A DNA stretch of 64,000 nt from NCBI GenBank assembly GCA_963662665.2, contig CAXXJS010000010.1:384001-448000 (forward strand). Direction: 5' to 3'. The stretch is from Candidatus Latescibacterota bacterium. GTDB lineage: Bacteria; Latescibacterota; UBA2968; GCA-2709665. Within the stretch, counting starts at the first letter, position 1. Every line of letters starts with the position of its first letter. The notes under the pieces are model-generated. The model was not told where the DNA came from. It was given only the letters and a program-made list of their open reading frames with translations, and did no database searches. The position numbers and the translations under genes were made by a program. Positions 14,967 to 23,900 of this stretch are shown here, one piece after another.

Positions 14967-15365
14967 TCATCGTCTTCGTTTATACGCCTTCCCGTGTCCC
15001 TCCCGGATCAGGACCTTCGCCAGGTTGGACCCGTCCTGCAGCCTGACCGTGGCCACGACGCGCCCGGAGAAGTTGCCTTGCTTCACATTCTCCAGGTAAA
15101 CGGTTTTCCCGATCCGTTTCCGGACGAAGTCGCGTGCCAGCAGTGCGCGTCGCTTCTCCGACTTGCTCTTCGTCTGAATTTCCGGCGTATCCACACCCCG
15201 CACGCGCACCTTTCCTCGCCATGTCAGGCCCGGCCAGAGGACGACGTCCACGGTCATCGTATCGCCGTCGTAGACGGAAACAACCGTCGCCTCATGCCTG
15301 GGGTACAACGATGGTCTTGCGTCGGCCGTCGAAATCAAGGCAAGATAAACGAGAATCCATACCAT
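14967..15365 (-). CDS. Thermonuclease (SNase) family protein, probably exported
   Basis: Hydrophobic N-terminus; VVSVYDGDT, VRVRGVDTPE, GR, LIREG; RBS AGGAG before ATG 15365. Confidence 0.88.
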   Translation of the reverse strand: MVWILVYLALISTADARPSLYPRHEATVVSVYDGDTMTVDVVLWPGLTWRGKVRVRGVDTPEIQTKSKSEKRRALLARDFVRKRIGKTVYLENVKQGNFSGRVVATVRLQDGSNLAKVLIREGHGKAYKRRR

Positions 15366-15405
15366 AGCACGCTCCTGAATGTGGCTTGAGAAACGGAAAC
15401 GCAAC

Positions 15406-15434
15406 AGTATATTGCAATCGCATCGGGCTGTCAA
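15406..15434 (-). promoter_or_regulatory. Near-consensus sigma70 promoter of the thermonuclease gene
   Basis: Minus strand TTGACA-N17-TATACT. Confidence 0.75.
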
Positions 15435-15550
15435 CCTTCGGGCGGAGCATGCAGGCTGAGTTGCCACCGCGAAACAACGCAAGCATTTGGAAGTGCCGGT
15501 TGGGAAGATCTCAGAGACTCGCGAATCCGCCTTCCGGTGTACCGGCACCA

Positions 15551-15567
15551 TTCAATCATTGTGCCAA
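15551..15567 (-). promoter_or_regulatory. Candidate sigma54 (-24/-12) promoter divergent from the activator gene
   Basis: Minus strand TTGGCACAATGATTGAA = TGGCAC-N5-TTGA (A instead of C at -12). Confidence 0.55.
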
Positions 15568-15607
15568 CCCGTCATGCTCGGTTGACACGCGGATTGAGCA
15601 CACGTAG

Positions 15608-15671
15608 CACCAAGACGATTTTAGTACACACCATAAGAAATCTTGTGATACCACAAGATTTTTTGTATATT
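15608..15671. promoter_or_regulatory. Operator/UAS array overlapping the activator's own sigma70-like promoter
   Basis: Three imperfect repeats at 20-21 bp spacing (CACCAAGACGATTTTAGTA, CACCATAAGAAATCTTGTG, TACCACAAGATTTTTTGTA); perfect IR AAATCTTGTG-N4-CACAAGATTT at 15638-15661; TTGTGA-N17-TATATT ending 7 nt before ATG 15679. Confidence 0.65.
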
Positions 15672-15678
15672 GCAGCCT

Positions 15679-17184
15679 ATGGCAAAGATACTGATCACCT
15701 GGATCGGCCGGGCCGATCTTCGGGCGCCCCTGGACGATCCCGTCGTGGGCATCGGGCCGGTTGCGCAGGCGCTCGGCGCACGTGAGTTCGACGCCGCCGT
15801 GTTGATAAGCGACTGGGCCGAAAACGTGTCGTCGCCGTTTCTTGAATGGCTCCGGCCGTGGACCGGGGCCGATGTCACGGTCCGGCACGAGCCGCTCTCG
15901 GGGCCCACGGAGTTCGGCGAGATTTACGAAGCGGCCGTTCGAGTTGTGTCGGAGACGCTGGCGCGTTACGGGAAAGACGCCGATCTGACGTACCATCTGA
16001 GTCCCGGCACCCCGGCCATGGCCGCTGTCTGGATCATCCTGGCCAAAACGCGGTTTCCCGCGGAACTGATCGAGTCATCCGCAGAGCAAGGCGTGCGCAT
16101 CGCGTCGGTGCCGTTCGACATTTCGGCCGAATTCATTCCGGACCTCCTCCGGGGACCGGACGAGCGCCTCGAAAAGACGATGGCAGGACTCCCGCCGGAG
16201 GCGCCCGAATTCGCCGATATCATACACCGCAGCGATGTAATGGCGCGCGTCATTTCCAGGGCGAGCCGTGTGGCGCCGCGATCGGTTCCCGTGCTCATCC
16301 AGGGGGAGTCCGGTACGGGAAAGGAATTGCTGGCACGGGCGATACACCGGGCGAGCCCCCGGCGGGACCGGCCCTTCGTGGCGGTCAACTGCGGCGCGAT
16401 ACCCGCGGAACTGGCAGAATCCGAACTGTTCGGTCACGAAAAAGGCGCGTTCACGGGCGCGCATCGATCGCGCGTCGGCTATTTCGAGGCTGCCGACTCG
16501 GGAACGCTCTTCCTCGACGAGGTTGGCGAACTCTCCCCGTCCGCCCAGATCAAGTTTCTTCGGATCCTGCAGGATGGGAACGTCCTGCCCGTGGGTTCAA
16601 GGTCGCATCGCGGGGTGGACGTCCGGATCATAGCGGCAACGAACAGGGGTTTGTCAGGAGAAGTCGCCGATGGCCGGTTCCGGGAGGATTTATACTATCG
16701 TCTGGCAGTGGCGGACCTGAAGCTGCCGCCCCTGAGAGACCGCGAGGGCGACCTGGGTCTTCTCGTGGATAGATTGCTTAAACAGGTCAACGTGGAACAC
16801 GCGGGACAGCCGGGCTACGAGCACAAGAAGATTTCTCCAGGTGCAAGAAATCTCATCATGGCTCATCCGTGGCCGGGTAACGTCCGCGAACTGTTGAACA
16901 CGCTTCACCGGGCCGCTTTGTGGTCCACCGGGCCCATCATCCAAAGCGAAGACTTGCGGGATGCGTTGTTGCCGGCGGTGAACCCGGTCGACGCCAGGAT
17001 CCTCGAACGTCCGCTGGGCGACGGCCTCAGCCTGCCGGATTTGCTGGCAGCCGTGGCGCGGCACTACCTGGCGCGGGCGTTGGACGAGACCAACGGAAAC
17101 AAGTCGCGCGCGGCCCGGCTCGTCGGCCTCCCCAGCTACCAGACGTTTACGAATTGGCTGAAGAGATACGGGGTGGATCGATAA
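15679..17184 (+). CDS. sigma54-dependent enhancer-binding protein with N-terminal CARF/RtcR-like sensor domain
   Basis: AAA+ motifs GESGTGKE, VNCGAIP, GAFTGA, LFLDEVG, FREDLYYRL, WPGNVREL; C-terminal Fis-type HTH; N-terminal Rossmann-like domain with LTYHLSPGTPAM and no receiver motif. Confidence 0.85.
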   Translation: MAKILITWIGRADLRAPLDDPVVGIGPVAQALGAREFDAAVLISDWAENVSSPFLEWLRPWTGADVTVRHEPLSGPTEFGEIYEAAVRVVSETLARYGKDADLTYHLSPGTPAMAAVWIILAKTRFPAELIESSAEQGVRIASVPFDISAEFIPDLLRGPDERLEKTMAGLPPEAPEFADIIHRSDVMARVISRASRVAPRSVPVLIQGESGTGKELLARAIHRASPRRDRPFVAVNCGAIPAELAESELFGHEKGAFTGAHRSRVGYFEAADSGTLFLDEVGELSPSAQIKFLRILQDGNVLPVGSRSHRGVDVRIIAATNRGLSGEVADGRFREDLYYRLAVADLKLPPLRDREGDLGLLVDRLLKQVNVEHAGQPGYEHKKISPGARNLIMAHPWPGNVRELLNTLHRAALWSTGPIIQSEDLRDALLPAVNPVDARILERPLGDGLSLPDLLAAVARHYLARALDETNGNKSRAARLVGLPSYQTFTNWLKRYGVDR

Positions 17185-17386
17185 TCGCGCACTACCCGCC
17201 AGGCAATGCATCGCCCGCGCCTTCGAACGAACGGCAAAGAAATAGAGGGAAGACAATCGGCCCGTGGCGAACAATCGGCCTATCCGGGATCTCCTGTCAC
17301 CCACAAAGAATAACATCGCAAGCGTTCGCGTTCGTCATAGACACTTCGAGTGTAAATTTCGAACCCGACGCAAACTTCCAATCCCA

Positions 17387-18097
17387 ATGACCAACGTCGA
17401 ATGGATCTTTCTGGACCTGGGCTGGACGCTCGTGGACGAAACCCGGTCGCACCGTGCGCGTCTAAGGGGCGTTTGTGATCGGTTGGCCGGGTTGGGCACT
17501 CGTCATTCCGTGGACGAACTCATGCGGTTGTGCGAACAGGCGGCGACGGATTTTGCGCCAAGCCCCTTTCGCGGCATGCTGGCGCACCTGGAACTGTCTG
17601 AAGACCGGACTCCCACCCTTGCGGATTCGGCCCGCTACGAGCACAAATACGAAGTCCTGTATCCCGGCGTTCCCAAGATTCTCGAGGCGCTGGCGCAACG
17701 GTTCAAGCTCGGCGTCATCGCCAACCAATCCGAGGGAACTGAGAAACGTCTCGTGCGATGGGGAATTCGGGACCATTTTTCGCATGTTTTCGCGTCCGCC
17801 GAGTTCGGGCTTTCAAAGCCCGATCCGGAGATTTTCCGGAGGGCCGCGTCCGTGGCCGGGTGCGTACCCGAACGCGCACTGATGGTTGGCGACCGGCTCG
17901 ATAACGACGTCGGTCCCGCGAAATCCCAGGGCTGGAAGACCATGCGCGTATTGCAGGGTTTTTCCCGGTTTCAGGCGCCCCGGCGCCCCGAAGAGATACC
18001 CGATATGACCATCCCGTCGATCAGGGGACTATCCGACGCCCGGCAGATGGGGCGACCGTACCACAACCCCGGCGCCGCCATTCGAGGGTCGGTATGA
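17387..18097 (+). CDS. HAD family hydrolase
   Basis: IFLDLGWTL, LYPGV, SKPDPEIF, MVGDRLDND; stop overlaps the next ATG (ATGA). Confidence 0.88.
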   Translation: MTNVEWIFLDLGWTLVDETRSHRARLRGVCDRLAGLGTRHSVDELMRLCEQAATDFAPSPFRGMLAHLELSEDRTPTLADSARYEHKYEVLYPGVPKILEALAQRFKLGVIANQSEGTEKRLVRWGIRDHFSHVFASAEFGLSKPDPEIFRRAASVAGCVPERALMVGDRLDNDVGPAKSQGWKTMRVLQGFSRFQAPRRPEEIPDMTIPSIRGLSDARQMGRPYHNPGAAIRGSV

Positions 18098-19254
18098 AGA
18101 TCATTGGCGCAACCTGCTTCGAACTCAGGATTCCCTTCGTCGAGGCCTTCGGCCACAGCGCTTCGGTACGTTCCCGCTCGGACTCGGTCGTCGTGCGCCT
18201 GACTGCAGAAGACGGCACCGTGGGCTACGGAGAAGGCCTGCCGCGTCCGTACGTGACGGGTGAGACCGTCGAGACCTGCGTCAGCCATATAGCGCATTGT
18301 CTCTGGCCGGCCATCGCGGATTCAGACTTTCAGGCGCTGGAACCCGGCCCGGATCCCATTCGCACGCTGGATCCTGTGGGCCGGACACTGCCCGACGGCG
18401 ATGCCGGCGACGTCGTCGCGTGGAACGCGGCGAGGGCGGCGTGTGAACTGGCTTTGATCGACGTCCTTTTGCGCCGCCAGAAACTGTCTCTGGGAGATAT
18501 TCTACCGGCGAAGCGGGCTTTCGTCACCTACAGCGGCGTCATTACGGGCGGTTCAATCGACAACGCCGTCCGACTCGCGCGGGTCTGCGTGGAATACGGA
18601 CTTCGGGCCGTCAAGATCAAGATCGACGGGGAAGACGCACGCGACCGCGTCGCGGCCGTCCGCGAGGCCGTGGGACCGTCGGTATCCCTTCGAGTCGACG
18701 CGAACTGTGCCTACACGCCCGATGAAGCCGTCTCAACGCTCGCGGCCCTGGCGCCGTATGACGTCGCCTGCGCGGAGCAGCCCATTCCCCGTGGCGATCC
18801 GGCGGCGCTGGCGCAAGTCCGGTCTCTGTCCCCGATTCCGATCATGGCGGACGAATCGCTCGTGACTCCGGACGACGCGGAGGCGCTCATCGCGTCGGCG
18901 GCCTGCGATTTCTTCAATCTCCGCATTTCCAAGTGCGGCGGAATAGCCCGCACGCTGGAGATCGCGCGCAAGGCCGCCCGTGCGGGTCTGCACCTGCAAC
19001 TGGGGTGCCAGGTGGGAGAATCCGCCATCCTCTCGGCGGCGGGACGGCACGTGGCTGCACATCTGGACCGGGTTTCGTTTGTGGAGGGGTCCTACGGGGG
19101 CATGTTGCTGGTGGAAGACGTGTCTGAAGAACCTGTTGCGTTCGGCCGCGGCGGAAACGCGCCGTTGCTTCGGGGTCCGGGGCTCGGCGTCGACGTACGG
19201 GAATGCGCCCTGCACGCCCACGCGGAGTCCACGACGGCTCTTGGTGAGGGATAG
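18094..19254 (+). CDS. Enolase-superfamily enzyme (muconate cycloisomerase / dipeptide epimerase subgroup)
   Basis: GYGEGLPR, KIK, RVDAN, EQP, MADES, SKCGG, GCQVGE, PGLGV. Confidence 0.88.
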   Translation: MKIIGATCFELRIPFVEAFGHSASVRSRSDSVVVRLTAEDGTVGYGEGLPRPYVTGETVETCVSHIAHCLWPAIADSDFQALEPGPDPIRTLDPVGRTLPDGDAGDVVAWNAARAACELALIDVLLRRQKLSLGDILPAKRAFVTYSGVITGGSIDNAVRLARVCVEYGLRAVKIKIDGEDARDRVAAVREAVGPSVSLRVDANCAYTPDEAVSTLAALAPYDVACAEQPIPRGDPAALAQVRSLSPIPIMADESLVTPDDAEALIASAACDFFNLRISKCGGIARTLEIARKAARAGLHLQLGCQVGESAILSAAGRHVAAHLDRVSFVEGSYGGMLLVEDVSEEPVAFGRGGNAPLLRGPGLGVDVRECALHAHAESTTALGEG

Positions 19255-19257
19255 ACC

Positions 19258-20931
19258 ATGGGAAAACTCGTCAAGACGCTCATTCGGATGAAGGGATACG
19301 GGCTGGCGCGGAAGCTCGACCGCGCCGCCGAACGCCCACACGCCGCGCAGAACGCCTTTCTGCTCCGCCAGACAAAGGCCAACGCCAACACGGCATTCGG
19401 AAAGGACCATGGTTTCGCCGCAATCCGCACGGAAGCCGACTACCGTCGTCAGGTCCCCATCCGGGACTACGAAGGGCTGCGTCCCTACGTCAACCGGATT
19501 ATCGCGGGCGAGCAGGCGGTACTCACGTCGGCCGCGCCACGGATGCTGAACATGACGAGCGGGACCACGGGCGAACCGAAATACATCCCCGTTACGCCCG
19601 ACTCCATGCGCCTCGCCTCCGGCTTCTCCCTGGAATGGATCTATCGCGCGCTGCATGACCATCCCACGTTCCTGGACGGCGCCTTTGTGGGTATTGTCAG
19701 CCGGGCGATCGAGGGTCGTACATCAGCCGGACTTCCTTACGGCAGCGCGTCCGGGATGCTCTATCAGCGAATCCCCGGGCCGATTCGAAGCACCTACGCG
19801 ATTCCTTACGCGGTTTCCGAGATCAAGGACTACGATCGCCGTTATTTCATTGCCGCGCGCCTGGCGCTGGCCAGGCGTGTTACGTACATCGGCACACCCA
19901 ATCCAAGCACGCTTGTCCGTCTGGCCGAAACCGCAATACAAAACGCCGATGCCATTGTTCGCGCCGTTCACGACGGCACGCAGGGGATCGATTTGCCGGA
20001 CCAGCCGGAACTGGCCGTGCAACTGTCCGCCCACGTGAAACCGGACCCGGAACGTGCGCGGGTCCTGGAGGACACAGTGAGACGGACAGGGGCGCTTCGT
20101 CCTGCGGACTGCTGGCCCAACCTGAAACTCATCGGGTGCTGGCTGGGCGGCAGCGTGGGCGTTCAGGCCCGAAAGTTACCGGAATATTACGGCGACGTCC
20201 CCATGCGCGACCTGGGCTTTCTGGCCAGCGAAGGACATTTCACCCTTCCGAACCGGGACCATTCCGCCTCGGGCATCCTTTCGCTGAACGGCAACTACTA
20301 CGAGTTTATACCGGAGGCATCGTTGGATGAACGGAATCCACCGGTACTGTCCAGCCACGAACTGGAATCAGGCATGAACTACGCGGTCCTGCTGACCACC
20401 CCCGGCGGCCTGTACCGCTACGATATTCACGATATCGTACAAGTGACGGGGTTCTATCGGAATGCCCCGTTACTGGCCTTTATCCGGAAGGGCCGCGACA
20501 TGACGAGCATCACGGGCGAGAAGATGCACGTAAACCATCTGCTACTGGCGCTGGAGGAGGTCCGCCGCCGATATGACGTATCGGTGGTCGAACAGTTCCG
20601 GGTGGTGGCGAACGTGGAGGCGCGCCGGTACGAAATCTACGCGGAATTCAAGGGGGAGGTTGCGCGGGATCTGCTCAGAGACGAAGTGATTCCCCATCTG
20701 GATCGCGCGTTGGCAGGGGTCAACGTGGAGTATGCGGAGAAGCGCCGCTCGCGAAGGCTGGCGCCGCCTTGTATTCATCTGATGCGCCGGGGCTGGGCCG
20801 AAGACGAGGTGCTGCGCGCCGCGGGCGCGGGGAAGCGGGATATTCAGTACAAGTGGCGGATTCTCTGCGCCGAGCCCACAGAGGAAGACGTTGGCGCCAT
20901 ACTCTACACGCTCGAAGCGGAGGAGGAGTAG
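19258..20931 (+). CDS. GH3-family acyl-acid amido synthetase-like protein
   Basis: TAFGKDHGF, VPIRDYE, TSGTTGEPKYIP, FLASEG, YYEFIP, TTPGGLYRYDIHD. Confidence 0.9.
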   Translation: MGKLVKTLIRMKGYGLARKLDRAAERPHAAQNAFLLRQTKANANTAFGKDHGFAAIRTEADYRRQVPIRDYEGLRPYVNRIIAGEQAVLTSAAPRMLNMTSGTTGEPKYIPVTPDSMRLASGFSLEWIYRALHDHPTFLDGAFVGIVSRAIEGRTSAGLPYGSASGMLYQRIPGPIRSTYAIPYAVSEIKDYDRRYFIAARLALARRVTYIGTPNPSTLVRLAETAIQNADAIVRAVHDGTQGIDLPDQPELAVQLSAHVKPDPERARVLEDTVRRTGALRPADCWPNLKLIGCWLGGSVGVQARKLPEYYGDVPMRDLGFLASEGHFTLPNRDHSASGILSLNGNYYEFIPEASLDERNPPVLSSHELESGMNYAVLLTTPGGLYRYDIHDIVQVTGFYRNAPLLAFIRKGRDMTSITGEKMHVNHLLLALEEVRRRYDVSVVEQFRVVANVEARRYEIYAEFKGEVARDLLRDEVIPHLDRALAGVNVEYAEKRRSRRLAPPCIHLMRRGWAEDEVLRAAGAGKRDIQYKWRILCAEPTEEDVGAILYTLEAEEE

Positions 20932-20992
20932 CAGGAAGCAGATGTGAGCGGTCAGTTTTCAGCCGTCAGCTTGAAGCAAGATCGAAAATCAG

Positions 20993-21022
20993 CTCACACG
21001 AAGACGCCAGGACGCAAAGAGA
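20993..21022. repeat. Octamer-periodic intergenic repeat, copy 2
   Basis: CTCACACGAAGACGCCAGGACGCAAAGAGA; compare 14781-14810. Confidence 0.6.
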
Positions 21023-21036
21023 AACAAACGAAAAGC

Positions 21037-21061
21037 GGGCAACCACAAGGGTTGCCCCTAC
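21037..21061 (-). repeat. GTAG-type REP-like hairpin
   Basis: Minus strand GTAGGGGCAACCCTTGTGGTTGCCC. Confidence 0.7.
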
Positions 21062-21185
21062 GAACGCAATTTGCACGCGGGCGGACCCACGCGAATCCAC
21101 CAGGATGAACTCCCCTGACGACCTTCAGTCCGCACGCTGGTGTGGACGGGGCTATTGTTCGTGGCAAAAAACCGGCTCCGTGCAC

Positions 21186-22547
21186 CTACTCGCGCCGGTG
21201 AACCGTCATCGGCATCCCGTGGAGCGGCCATGTCTTCACGTCCATAGACGGTTCTACGGGATGGCCGGGAACAAGTTCAAGCCGATACTGCCGTATCGCC
21301 ATCGACAGCACAAGCGCGGCTTCCAGCATCGCGAAATTGGCGCCCAGGCAGATCCGGGGCCCGGCGCTGAAGGGCAGGTAGGCGTAGCGGGAGCGTCGTT
21401 CCGTCTGCTCCGGGGTGAATCGTTCCGGGTCGAACCTCGCCGGTTTTTCCCAGAGGGCCGGATGGCGCTGCGTGATATAGGGACTCACGAGCACCAATGA
21501 CCCTGCAGGAATGTGGTACCCGTCGATCTCGTCGTCGGCCGCGGCCTCACGGACGATCACCTTGATCGGCGGGTACAGCCGCATCGCTTCCTGGAACACC
21601 ATACGTGCGTATTGGAGACGCTGGACAGCCGCGAAAGTCGGCAGGTCTCCATTCAGTACCGAATGCTGTTCCTTCCATAACACTCCCTCCGCCTGCCGAT
21701 GTCGATCCAGCAGGTACCACGTCCAGGTGAGGGCGTGCATTGTTGTCTGATACCCCGCAACGAAGAGCGTTACCAGTTCGTCACGCAGTTGCAGCCGATC
21801 CATCCGCTCGCCGGTTTTCTCGTCGCGGGCGCCCAGCAGTACCGAGAGCAGATCCTCCTCCACGGGACGGTCTCGCCGTTCGTCTATACGCGCTTCGACG
21901 TATTGGTGGATGTCGTTCAGGCATTGCTTGAACCGGCGGTTCGCGGGCGTGGGGACGAACATGGGCGGCGCGATCAGATCGGCCGAACGCCGGTCGATAA
22001 ACCCCACGCAGTACTGGAACGCTTCGTCGATTCGCGACGTCTCATCGTTCAGGTCCCTGCTGAAGAGAATACGGACGATGATATTTCCCGTAAGGCGCGC
22101 CATTTCCTCGTCGACCTGGATCACGTGCTTTCCGTCCGCAAGGGGCTCCCAACGCGCAAGCATGTCGCGGATCGCGTTCACCATAACATTCACGAATCGC
22201 ATCGTGCCCCTGGGCGTGAATAACGGCTGCATGATCCGGTGCTGGCGCTCCCAGAGTTCTCCTTCGCTCGTAATCAGGCCTTCGCCCAGCAGAAGCTTCT
22301 GGTCGTCGTAACCATAACCCTTGAAATAGGTTCGCCTCCCTCGTACAAGTACGTGTTCGATATGCTCCGGGCGGGTGACCAGGTGCACCGTCTTGCCACG
22401 GATGTTCAGCCGGACTACGTCGCCGAAACTGGACCAGGCATCCATCAGATACCCGATCGGGTCCTTCCGGAACGGAAGCACGCAGCCCAGAAAGGGCAGC
22501 CCACGCGGTCCGGGGGCGAGGGTCCTGACGGCTGTTGGATCAGGCAT
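21186..22547 (-). CDS. Cytochrome P450
   Basis: PGP hinge, VAGYQTT (I-helix), EAMR (ExxR), PERF, FSAGPRICLG (heme Cys). Confidence 0.95.
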   Translation of the reverse strand: MPDPTAVRTLAPGPRGLPFLGCVLPFRKDPIGYLMDAWSSFGDVVRLNIRGKTVHLVTRPEHIEHVLVRGRRTYFKGYGYDDQKLLLGEGLITSEGELWERQHRIMQPLFTPRGTMRFVNVMVNAIRDMLARWEPLADGKHVIQVDEEMARLTGNIIVRILFSRDLNDETSRIDEAFQYCVGFIDRRSADLIAPPMFVPTPANRRFKQCLNDIHQYVEARIDERRDRPVEEDLLSVLLGARDEKTGERMDRLQLRDELVTLFVAGYQTTMHALTWTWYLLDRHRQAEGVLWKEQHSVLNGDLPTFAAVQRLQYARMVFQEAMRLYPPIKVIVREAAADDEIDGYHIPAGSLVLVSPYITQRHPALWEKPARFDPERFTPEQTERRSRYAYLPFSAGPRICLGANFAMLEAALVLSMAIRQYRLELVPGHPVEPSMDVKTWPLHGMPMTVHRRE

Positions 22548-22625
22548 GGTCCATCCAACCCTTGTTCAACCCGCTCCGGCAAGGCGCCGGCCTTTGATCC
22601 GGCCCACCCAGGTTGGCCGCGGGCT

Positions 22626-23900
22626 TCACTTGGGGATTTCCGAGGTCAGAATACGGGGGTCCGCCGCGGTGACGAGCACGTTGTCCTCGATACGGACGCC
22701 GCCCACATCCCGCCAGGACGCCAGTGCGTCCCAGTCGACCACTCCAGCGAAGCGTTCGCGCCGCTCAGGGTCGTCGAGCAATGCCGGCACGAAATACACC
22801 CCGGGCTCAACGGTCATCAGGTAGTTTTCCTCCAGCGGCAGGTCGATGCGCATCCGGATGCCGCAATAGACGCTGACTTCACGCCCGGCCGTCCGGCCGC
22901 CCACGTCCCGGACGCCAAGGCCGACCATGTGGCCGACGCCGTGGGGCAGGAAGAGCGAAATGGCGCCGGTGTCGAGGACGGCGTCCGGTTTCTCTCTGAA
23001 AATGCCCAGGTCGCGAAGCCCAAGTGCGATCACGGCGGCGGCGGCCCGGTGTACTTCGTGCCACTCGACCCCTTTCCGGCAGGTGGAGATGGCCTCCAGC
23101 TGAGCGGCAAGAACGAGGTCGTAGATGGCCTGCTGCCGGGGCGTGAAACGGTCTCCGGCGGGGTAGGTGCGGGTGACGTCGGCGGTGTAGCCGGCGATGG
23201 ATGCGCCGGCGTCGATGAGGACCAGGTCGTCCGGTTCCACAGTCCGGGCGCCGGGTTCGAAATGAAGCACGGCCGCGTGGGTTCCCGCGCCGACGATAGT
23301 GTCGAAGGCCACGTCGTCGGCGCCGTGCCGGTACATTTCGGCTTCAAGTTCAATGCGGATCCGGCGTTCGCTGACGCCCGGCTGTATGGTTTCGCGGGCT
23401 CTCGCGTGGCCGGCCGCGGTTGCTCCCGCCGCCCGTTCGATCAGTGCGACCTCGGCCTTGTCCTTGCGGCGGCGGACTTCGTCAAGGGAAACCTGAAGCG
23501 CCGCCACCCGTTGATGTTCGCTTTCTACGTTGTCCACCGCGGCGCCAATGACCGCGATGGGGCGGCCTGAGCGTGTGACCAGCCAACGCGGGAGTTCGGC
23601 GACGTCCTCGCCCTCGACCGTTTCCGTGCCGCCTTCCCACAGCCGTTCGTTCTGTGAAACCGGTCGCACGAAGTGCCTCCAGCCGTCCTGCGGATCATAG
23701 GCGAGTACGCCGCCCCAACGTCTGGATCCGGTGAGCCAGTAGTATTCGGGGTAGGGGACGAACGGATAGGTCTGGTCCTGCCCTCCGGGAATCTGAACCG
23801 GCTTCCCGGCGCCGAAGAGCACGATTGGCGGGTCGTCTCCGAATGCGCCGGAAGCACGCTGCCGCCTGCGTTCCAGCACGTCATTCTCGAATATGGACAT
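22626..23900 (-). CDS. Xaa-Pro aminopeptidase (M24B)
   Basis: LIDAGA, YTADVTRT, PHGVGHMVGL, TVEPG, GVRIED. Confidence 0.9.
   Translation of the reverse strand: MSIFENDVLERRRQRASGAFGDDPPIVLFGAGKPVQIPGGQDQTYPFVPYPEYYWLTGSRRWGGVLAYDPQDGWRHFVRPVSQNERLWEGGTETVEGEDVAELPRWLVTRSGRPIAVIGAAVDNVESEHQRVAALQVSLDEVRRRKDKAEVALIERAAGATAAGHARARETIQPGVSERRIRIELEAEMYRHGADDVAFDTIVGAGTHAAVLHFEPGARTVEPDDLVLIDAGASIAGYTADVTRTYPAGDRFTPRQQAIYDLVLAAQLEAISTCRKGVEWHEVHRAAAAVIALGLRDLGIFREKPDAVLDTGAISLFLPHGVGHMVGLGVRDVGGRTAGREVSVYCGIRMRIDLPLEENYLMTVEPGVYFVPALLDDPERRERFAGVVDWDALASWRDVGGVRIEDNVLVTAADPRILTSEIPK

Follow-up and report, generated by a model that had tools for sequence, protein, structure and literature searches.

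What does a sigma54 activator control when the gene that it faces is neither an RNA-repair gene nor a defence gene? The question is raised by a 64,000-nucleotide (nt) stretch of a Candidatus Latescibacterota genome (contig CAXXJS010000010.1, positions 384,001 to 448,000; hereafter the window), in which a gene for an activator with CARF, AAA+ and HTH domains stands back to back with a gene for a nuclease of the SNase family. An earlier reading of this DNA (the original prediction) saw here a switch with the nuclease and/or a small RNA as its output, and offered the remnant of a lost defence island as a fallback. It is the fallback that fits best: homologues head defence operons, no cargo is present here and the promoter after the stop codon is decayed. 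With a confidence somewhat above even, we regard the gene as a solo, autoregulated, defence-associated RtcR-like regulator, of which the cargo is gone and the post-stop promoter decayed, and of which the surviving divergent promoter faces the SNase gene.

The activator and its sensor domain

The gene and its domains are placed as follows.

15679 to 17184, plus strand: RtcR-like CARF-AAA+-HTH sigma54 activator, 501 amino acids (aa); Pfam, PADLOC, NCBIfam, AlphaFold2/Foldseek
about 15679 to 16200, plus strand: CARF domain
16219 to 16719, plus strand: AAA+ domain
17059 to 17169, plus strand: Fis-type HTH domain

The open reading frame (ORF) extends from 15670 or 15679 to 17184, and the ATG at 15679, which is used by all homologues, gives the 501-aa product. 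Pfam recognizes Sigma54_activat (PF00158) at residues 181–347 (1.5e-68), AAA_lid_14, and HTH_8 at residues 461–497. The AAA+ motifs GESGTGK, GAFTGA and LFLDEV are found at residues 209, 256 and 277. The domain matches and the motif positions confirm the intact enhancer-binding protein (GAFTGA, Walker A/B, HTH) that had been described from the letters.

Residues 1–180 have no Pfam match at E ≤ 0.01. They contain the motif HLSPGTP (residues 106–112), invariant across all 14 aligned homologues. The PADLOC model PDLC01995 (RtcR_PspF2--CARF_AAA_HTH) covers residues 3–499 with an E-value of 4.6e-193 and 640.7 bits, and the alignment spans model positions 2–480 of 481, which makes it a full-length match. 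The best NCBIfam match is the RtcR equivalog (NF038308), which covers residues 69–488 and so reaches into the N-terminal domain; its score of 332.9 bits lies below the curated cut-off of 650. An AlphaFold2 model of residues 1–180, built on 14 homologues, has a predicted local distance difference test value (pLDDT) of 78.1 and a predicted template modelling score (pTM) of 0.75. Compared with the PDB by Foldseek, this model gave 36 matches at E ≤ 0.001, the top one being Csm6 (6tug, 5.4e-7). The recognized chains among the listed matches are all CARF proteins: Csm6, Can2, Card1, Cad1, Cdn1, ring nucleases and Cam1. Judged by its modelled fold, the N-terminal domain is a CARF domain and the protein is RtcR-like, as the original prediction had supposed; NCBIfam, PADLOC and Foldseek agree on this, the last with CARF matches only.

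Between pairs of the six activator copies of the family, the ratio of nonsynonymous to synonymous substitution rates (dN/dS) is 0.10–0.17, similar for the CARF, AAA+ and HTH parts, at dS values of 0.38–1.33. The GAFTGA and Walker motifs are intact in all six. This pattern of substitutions indicates purifying selection on each of the three domains of the activator, and a regulator that is not decaying. As a separate observation, five copies in a sister genus (L029–L033) have no match to G[AS]F[TS]GA; a canonical sigma54 promoter follows each of them nonetheless.

Predicted operator pair and promoter of the activator

The spacer between the SNase and activator genes (15366–15678) measures 313 nt. 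Its activator-proximal end holds two overlapping elements.

15635 to 15666, plus strand: operator or upstream activating sequence (UAS) pair, two AAGN4CTTGT units at 15635–15646 (AAGAAATCTTGT) and 15655–15666 (AAGATTTTTTGT)
15643 to 15671, plus strand: sigma70-like promoter of the activator, TTGTGA-17-TATATT, overlapping the operators and ending 7 nt before the ATG

The operator units are exactly 20 nt apart, start to start. The pair has one mismatch to the pattern and is the best match in its own genome. It contains an inverted repeat with arms of 13 nt (15635–15647 and 15652–15664, 92% complementary), within which lie perfect arms of 10 bp (15638–15647 and 15652–15661). The perfect 10-bp repeat at 15638–15661 was thus found as claimed. 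Three operator-like repeats had been listed originally, and two of them stand as the units given here. The third (15612–15623) falls away: it is 23 nt off, it differs from the pattern at three of the eight specified bases, and homologues show nothing comparable.

The only DNA conserved in all six own-family loci is a stretch of about 45 nt in front of the ATG, which comprises the operator pair and the -10 box; the DNA further upstream is unrelated. In 52 of 73 homologues, the 90 nt ahead of the start contain an operator pair, and AAGN4CTTGT units with at most one mismatch give 119 matches at -50 to -1 across 69 loci. The layout of the promoter over the operators is alike in homologues. Because the promoter ends 7 nt before the ATG without a Shine-Dalgarno sequence, the activator mRNA is probably leaderless. 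A leaderless-looking sigma70-like promoter under its own operators, another element of the original prediction, is therefore present and conserved in the family.

Promoter positions and cargo across the family

The family comprises at least 490 loci in species-representative genomes. The best 80 loci come from Latescibacterota, Binatia, Gemmatimonadota, Desulfobacterota, Myxococcota, Acidobacteriota, Planctomycetota and others, with 56–83% identity in the CARF domain. Promoters were surveyed in 73 full-length copies, accepting GG/GC elements that match at 9 or more of 11 positions or the strict motif TGGCAC-N5-NTG[C/A]. The homologues are phylogenetically related, and the following counts are not independent events. 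A sigma54 promoter lies within -25 to +45 of the stop codon in 59 of 73 copies, in most cases starting 1–5 nt after the stop. On the opposite strand, 80–210 nt before the start, a sigma54 promoter is found in 23 of 72, and 20 of these 23 are at -100 to -123. Both promoters are present in 16 copies and neither in 7 of 72. Control zones inside the gene contained no sigma54 element in any of the 73 copies.

Thirteen loci, picked by us as representatives from the best 80, were annotated for cargo. The gene directly after the activator encodes a Type I HsdR in six of them and another defence-type protein in four; three have no defence match. HsdM and HsdS follow HsdR in the clearest annotated loci. 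Besides these, the annotated loci contain, for example, a giant methyltransferase-AAA gene paired with a STAND-like gene, a Type IIG or DrmMI-like (DISARM-like) methyltransferase together with a DUF4007/SspB-like gene, a PLD gene with a BrxHII/DrmD helicase, and PDC-M09A and PDC-S02.

In 10 loci, mostly from Myxococcota, a family of 560–600-aa proteins without Pfam or PADLOC match is located under the divergent promoter. Examples are L076 6188–7867 and L092 5360–7078, both on the minus strand, together with eight further loci. The protein atlas lists this family as hypothetical; a weak lead is Mrr_cat, carried by 15% of one related cluster. Considered as a target in trans, it is absent from the window's own genome by tblastn.

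A second pile-up of operator matches, 63 in number, is located inside the activator gene near +1150, where the peptide KK(I/L)S..ARN(L/I)L corresponds to two units 20 nt apart. Of the arginine codons at this site, 46 of 50 are AGA or AGG, compared with 14.4% (405/2809) of the other arginine codons in the same genes, so that the DNA itself looks constrained. Such a pair would act as an intragenic enhancer, about 330 nt ahead of the stop-abutting promoter. The window has a corresponding pair, more degenerate than in relatives.

16825 to 16856, plus strand: internal operator-like pair AAGAAGATTTCT + AAGAAATCTCAT, 20 nt apart, about 330 nt before the stop

Some loci (L079, L101, L104, L107, L115, L122 and L125) have a second sigma54-like element, TGGCA[CT]...CTGC[AT], 455–461 nt after the stop. 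In L079 and L101, this element falls within an HsdR-type ORF, in its N-terminal part, which resembles S24 peptidases.

These positions provide a testable grammar for RtcR-like regulators that precede restriction or defence operons in many phyla: a sigma54 promoter 1–5 nt after the stop, an alternative divergent promoter near -110, 12-nt operator units paired 20 nt apart over a leaderless promoter, and a second pair in the coding sequence.

Behind the activator of the window, the first of these elements is found in altered form.

17185 to 17200, plus strand: decayed relic of the stop-abutting sigma54 promoter, TCGCGCACTACCCGCC, without GG

At this post-stop position, other phyla have TGGCACG-N4-TTGC. 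The own clade reads TAA TCGCGCAC, again without GG, and the relative G001 reads CGGCACAAATCCCGTC, with neither GC nor GA at -12. The cargo is missing as well. PADLOC at E ≤ 1e-10 matched none of 60 window ORFs (of 62 called, the activator and the SNase being scanned separately). This agrees with the statement that the window holds no rtcA/rtcB, cas or restriction genes; an rtcB gene lies on another contig.

The candidate divergent promoter and the nuclease

The other half of the spacer and the gene beyond it contain four features.

15552 to 15566, minus strand: candidate divergent sigma54 promoter TGGCACAATGATTGA(A), its 5' T 113 nt from the activator ATG (-113)
15552 to 15597, no strand: imperfect palindrome with 18-nt arms, 78% complementary, the left arm being the sigma54-like site
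15406 to 15434, minus strand: the SNase gene's own sigma70-type promoter, TTGACA-17-TATACT, 11/12 to consensus
14967 to 15365, minus strand: secreted SNase-family nuclease, 132 aa (Pfam SNase, PF00565)

The sigma54-like site reads TGGCAC-AATGA-TTGAA and is directed at the SNase gene, with a predicted transcription start near 15540. Its -24 element is a perfect TGGCAC, and its -12 element is a TTGA variant, not the textbook GC. Within the window, the loose sigma54 pattern is not enriched (7 matches with at most one mismatch vs 6.94 expected). In the 9.7 million strand-bases of the genome there are 76 copies of the strict motif TGGCAC-N5-NTG[CA], or 0.0078 per kb per strand, so that about 0.001 strict motifs are expected by chance in the family's 130-nt divergent zone. 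The TTGA variant recurs in the family, at 14 post-stop loci and at three divergent ones (-111, -113 and -123). Because of its family position and form and this low chance expectation, the -113 site is very probably a genuine promoter of the family type. The TGGCAC-N5-TTGA element towards the SNase gene, as first pointed out, thus occupies the typical divergent position in a recurring form.

One candidate explanation of the variant, that TTGA at -12 marks a decayed promoter, was rejected, since the variant precedes long HsdR ORFs (767–1147 aa, beginning within 13–19 nt) in 11 of the 14 post-stop cases and is found in the three divergent ones.

The small-RNA output that had been considered for this region finds no support: Rfam gave only a sub-threshold miRNA match on the inverted repeat (22.8 bits vs 50), and the fold of the 180-nt leader is no more stable than that of shuffled sequence (z -0.28).

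The SNase gene starts with the ATG at 15363–15365. Its product matches Pfam SNase at residues 52–130 with 36.4 bits against a cut-off of 21, and has a hydrophobic N-terminus. The sigma70-type promoter is invariant in 10 of 12 genomes, whether the activator is present or not. In 12 of 16 genomes, SNase is adjacent to HAD or to the activator; nine of these 12 lack the activator. These nine activator-less congeners have the order PhyH, SNase (minus strand), then HAD and MR_MLE (plus strand), with a spacer of 152–514 nt. The only part of the window's spacer region common to them is 15336–15446, which contains the SNase promoter. SNase does not occur as cargo in any of the 13 annotated homologue loci. 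The distribution of the gene indicates that SNase is a genus-core neighbour and not a conserved partner of the activator.

According to the original prediction, the activator, bound at 15635–15666, would drive the promoter at 15552–15566, and this signal-dependent induction of SNase would be selected, atop the constitutive sigma70 promoter. The arrangement fits a classical enhancer-binding protein: the UAS is situated about 70–115 nt upstream of the -24/-12 elements. The family position and form of the site and its chance expectation also speak for this proposal, as do the lack of a terminator-like site on the minus strand between 15540 and 15366 and the adjacency of SNase and activator in a second genome, G007. 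The comparison with relatives points the other way. The -113 site is absent from all five activator-carrying relatives, including G007, which has the same gene order as the window and a 205-nt spacer without a sigma54 site. A DNA search with 15440–15640 matched none of 40 relatives. In addition, the SNase gene and its promoter are in the same place and unchanged in the nine activator-less congeners, no annotated homologue locus has such a cargo, and the site doubles as an arm of the palindrome. An evolved nuclease output is therefore not borne out, and we consider selected induction of SNase unlikely.

A variant of this proposal makes the regulator a domesticated one, which lost its cargo and was kept (dN/dS ~0.13) since the divergent promoter makes SNase inducible by an RNA-damage or cyclic-nucleotide signal. 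To us this seems improbable; if true, the domestication would link the sensing of infection or stress to extracellular or periplasmic DNA degradation. Whether SNase mRNA rises when the activator is switched on is another matter. Such a rise is conceivable, and we would put its chances at a little under even.

The genes downstream of the activator

The usual place of the cargo is occupied by genes of another kind.

17387 to 20931, plus strand: HAD hydrolase, enolase-superfamily (MR_MLE) and GH3-family genes (Pfam, synteny)

These could be the present targets of the activator, through read-through or through a non-canonical promoter in 17185–17386. The three are core genes that lie downstream of the activator in all six carriers, with HAD following it in both genera concerned. 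The DNA upstream of HAD in the carriers is the 3' flank of the activator, not the promoter region of the activator-less congeners, and about 330 nt separate the internal operator pair from the stop downstream of it. Against this, the activator–HAD spacer contains no convincing sigma54 promoter: no element has both GG and GC/GA, and the best candidate loses its GG in the relative G021. All 14 congeners have HAD, and those without the activator have the HAD-MR_MLE pair. The genes look metabolic and have no PADLOC matches. Control of these genes by the activator is, in our view, quite unlikely.

Two further observations concern this side of the window. A perfect sigma54 consensus, TGGCACCCCAGTTGC(A), lies at 18996–19010 on the minus strand, antisense within the MR_MLE gene; it is one of only four 11/11 sigma54 matches in the genome and may be due to chance. 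At 19258–23900, the GH3-family amido-synthetase-like gene converges on cytochrome P450 and M24 peptidase genes, and the region may be a small-molecule conjugation cluster conserved in the genus.

Operator copies elsewhere in the genome

At position 38683 of contig C17 (L143 9683–9714), 31 of 36 bases of the operator region recur without an activator gene. This copy is situated about 100 nt after a gene for a 1362-aa P-loop protein without family match and a PDC-S01 (AAA_14/DUF4143) gene, and it precedes a homocysteine S-methyltransferase-like gene. In appearance it resembles a scar left by a further copy of the regulator.

The only RtcB match of the genome is on contig C55, which has none of the 15 Sigma54_activat matches. 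The rtcB locus shows no operator unit with fewer than two mismatches and no strong sigma54 site, and was rejected as a target in trans.

Action in trans on a distant locus, such as the C17 copy or a promoter in the unassembled 8% of the genome, would agree with that copy, with the PDC-S01 and P-loop genes before it and with purifying selection on an activator without a canonical local promoter, yet it is the least probable of these alternatives and we give it very little weight. Near the C17 copy there is no sigma54-like element (the sole match in the 19.5-kb locus is ~3.4 kb off); the copy has an altered -10 box and is directed at a metabolic gene. The genome contains no other operator pair with fewer than three mismatches (three-mismatch matches being at the level of shuffled sequence), and the rtcB locus offers neither operator nor strong promoter.

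The activator in related genomes

The N-terminal domain of the activator was found in 13 of 40 related genomes: 4 of 14 in its own genus, 1 of 2 in the second genus of the family and 8 of 16 in a genus of the sister family. All 21 other genomes of the family were included. Two metagenome pattern scans for further relatives of the spacer returned no matches. ORFs of the relatives were called by a longest-ORF rule, which makes their start codons approximate. In the congener G004, only a 24-aa C-terminal remnant of the activator is left, next to HAD, and at least some of the absences are thus losses.

The DNA upstream of the activator differs among the five activator-carrying relatives.

G007: SNase gene directly upstream
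G011: gene for a 1449-aa PPDK_N-fn3-cadherin protein
G021: island with a methyltransferase and a Schlafen/AlbA_2 gene
G001: methyltransferase-AAA gene and STAND-like gene
G024: WD40 gene

No sigma54 promoter was found for the upstream genes of the relatives (the 1449-aa gene, a 1474-aa gene and the methyltransferase island). In G021 (L023 12048–12283), there is also a duplicated operator pair with a fragment of the activator N-terminus (residues 4–71, 47% identity). The duplicate and the intact copy flank a 3.5-kb low-GC island, which encodes a DNA methyltransferase and a Schlafen/AlbA_2 protein. Rearrangements seem to be concentrated at the 5' end of the regulator, as at a hotspot.

Of the eight loci in the sister-family genus, seven carry TGGCACG-N4-ATGCW a short distance behind the stop. 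The promoter is followed by one or two low-GC gene pairs, each of an AriA/NsnB/PDC-M55A-like ATPase and an unannotated partner of ~320–330 aa. In these loci (L026–L033), the element lies ~26–40 nt after the stop, a conserved leader measures ~190 nt (~450 nt in two loci), and the modules occupy the following 2–6 kb, some of the ATPases having DUF3696. The arrangement looks like a candidate sigma54-controlled defence module.

Proposed mechanism

For the solo regulator that has lost its cargo, which is the explanation we prefer, the following mechanism is proposed. The CARF domain would sense a nucleotide or RNA-end signal, by analogy with RtcR, for which tRNA fragments with cyclic-phosphate ends have been proposed. 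The signal would release the AAA+ domain, which would then remodel the sigma54-RNA polymerase, and the C-terminal HTH would bind the AAGN4CTTGT units. The operator pair over the activator's own leaderless sigma70 promoter would confer autoregulation and would also act as an enhancer, with the second pair within the coding sequence. In most homologues, the sequence shows the outputs to be a stop-abutting sigma54 promoter, behind which the annotated loci mostly have Type I restriction-modification genes or defence genes of other kinds, and/or a divergent sigma54 promoter at about -110.

In the window, the defence cargo would have been lost and the post-stop promoter would have decayed, with the divergent promoter alone surviving. 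Cargo loss or rearrangement would have left it facing the genus-core SNase gene, which has its own sigma70 promoter. If the divergent promoter fires, it would read into SNase, because no terminator lies between them. Such transcription would be a lineage-specific by-product, not an evolved nuclease switch.

Three points weigh against this explanation. First, the -113 site, with its perfect TGGCAC and the TTGAA variant of the family at a typical position, could be a maintained functional link to SNase. Second, no Sigma54_DBD or Sigma54_CBD match (rpoN) was found in the own, 92%-complete assembly. That genome (G000) has 15 Sigma54_activat matches, and rpoN is probably in the unassembled 8%, since all 20 relatives searched possess it. 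Third, the activator has been kept over dS 0.4–1.3 without a canonical local sigma54 promoter in five of six relatives; purifying selection under these circumstances suggests that the activator does something and is more than a remnant. Solo copies under purifying selection raise the question of what role such a regulator has without cargo.

Comparison with known systems

The sensor domain of the activator has the fold of the CARF effectors of type III CRISPR systems (Csm6, Can2, Card1 and Cad1). Identity to these is 9–19%, and the output of the window activator is transcription, not a fused nuclease; moreover, unlike these effectors, it has no cas genes or cyclase nearby. At the protein level, there is no difference from the PADLOC model PDLC01995, whereas the genomic context differs. 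The name of this model presumably derives from the 2020 CARF classification of Makarova et al. The pairing of a CARF activator with a nuclease gene in the window represents a known regulator family beside a housekeeping gene, not a new defence system.

RtcR of E. coli and Salmonella, the activator of the rtcBA RNA-repair operon, has the same CARF-AAA+-HTH architecture and is likewise a sigma54 activator with a divergent promoter layout. For RtcR, sensing of an RNA-derived signal by the CARF domain is proposed in PMC7790460 and PMC9650030. Unlike RtcR, the window activator has no adjacent rtcA or rtcB, and its best profile is that of another clade, RtcR_PspF2.

The closest parallel is provided by the RtcR homologues of the same architecture which, according to parts of Bell et al. 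(eLife 2024, PMC11090510), are located at the 5' end of defence "superoperons" with CoCoNuTs, Type I restriction-modification, Druantia III and Shield. The same parts propose that an RNA-fragment signal sensed by CARF drives transcription of the downstream defence genes. An excerpt of PMC12191111 lists an RtcR gene in a Pseudomonas defence island. Promoter and operator positions for such regulators were not found in those parts of PMC11090510, and we make no claim that they are unpublished. In the surveyed homologues, as in the loci of Bell et al., the activator is followed on its own strand by HsdR/M/S and other defence genes; the window copy differs from these superoperons in having no defence gene within 64 kb by PADLOC. 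The switch had originally been called undescribed, a term that no longer applies, as the family is a PADLOC model and RtcR homologues heading defence superoperons appear in the text of PMC11090510. The activator family is known and widespread, and the window copy belongs to its defence-associated, RtcR-like clade.

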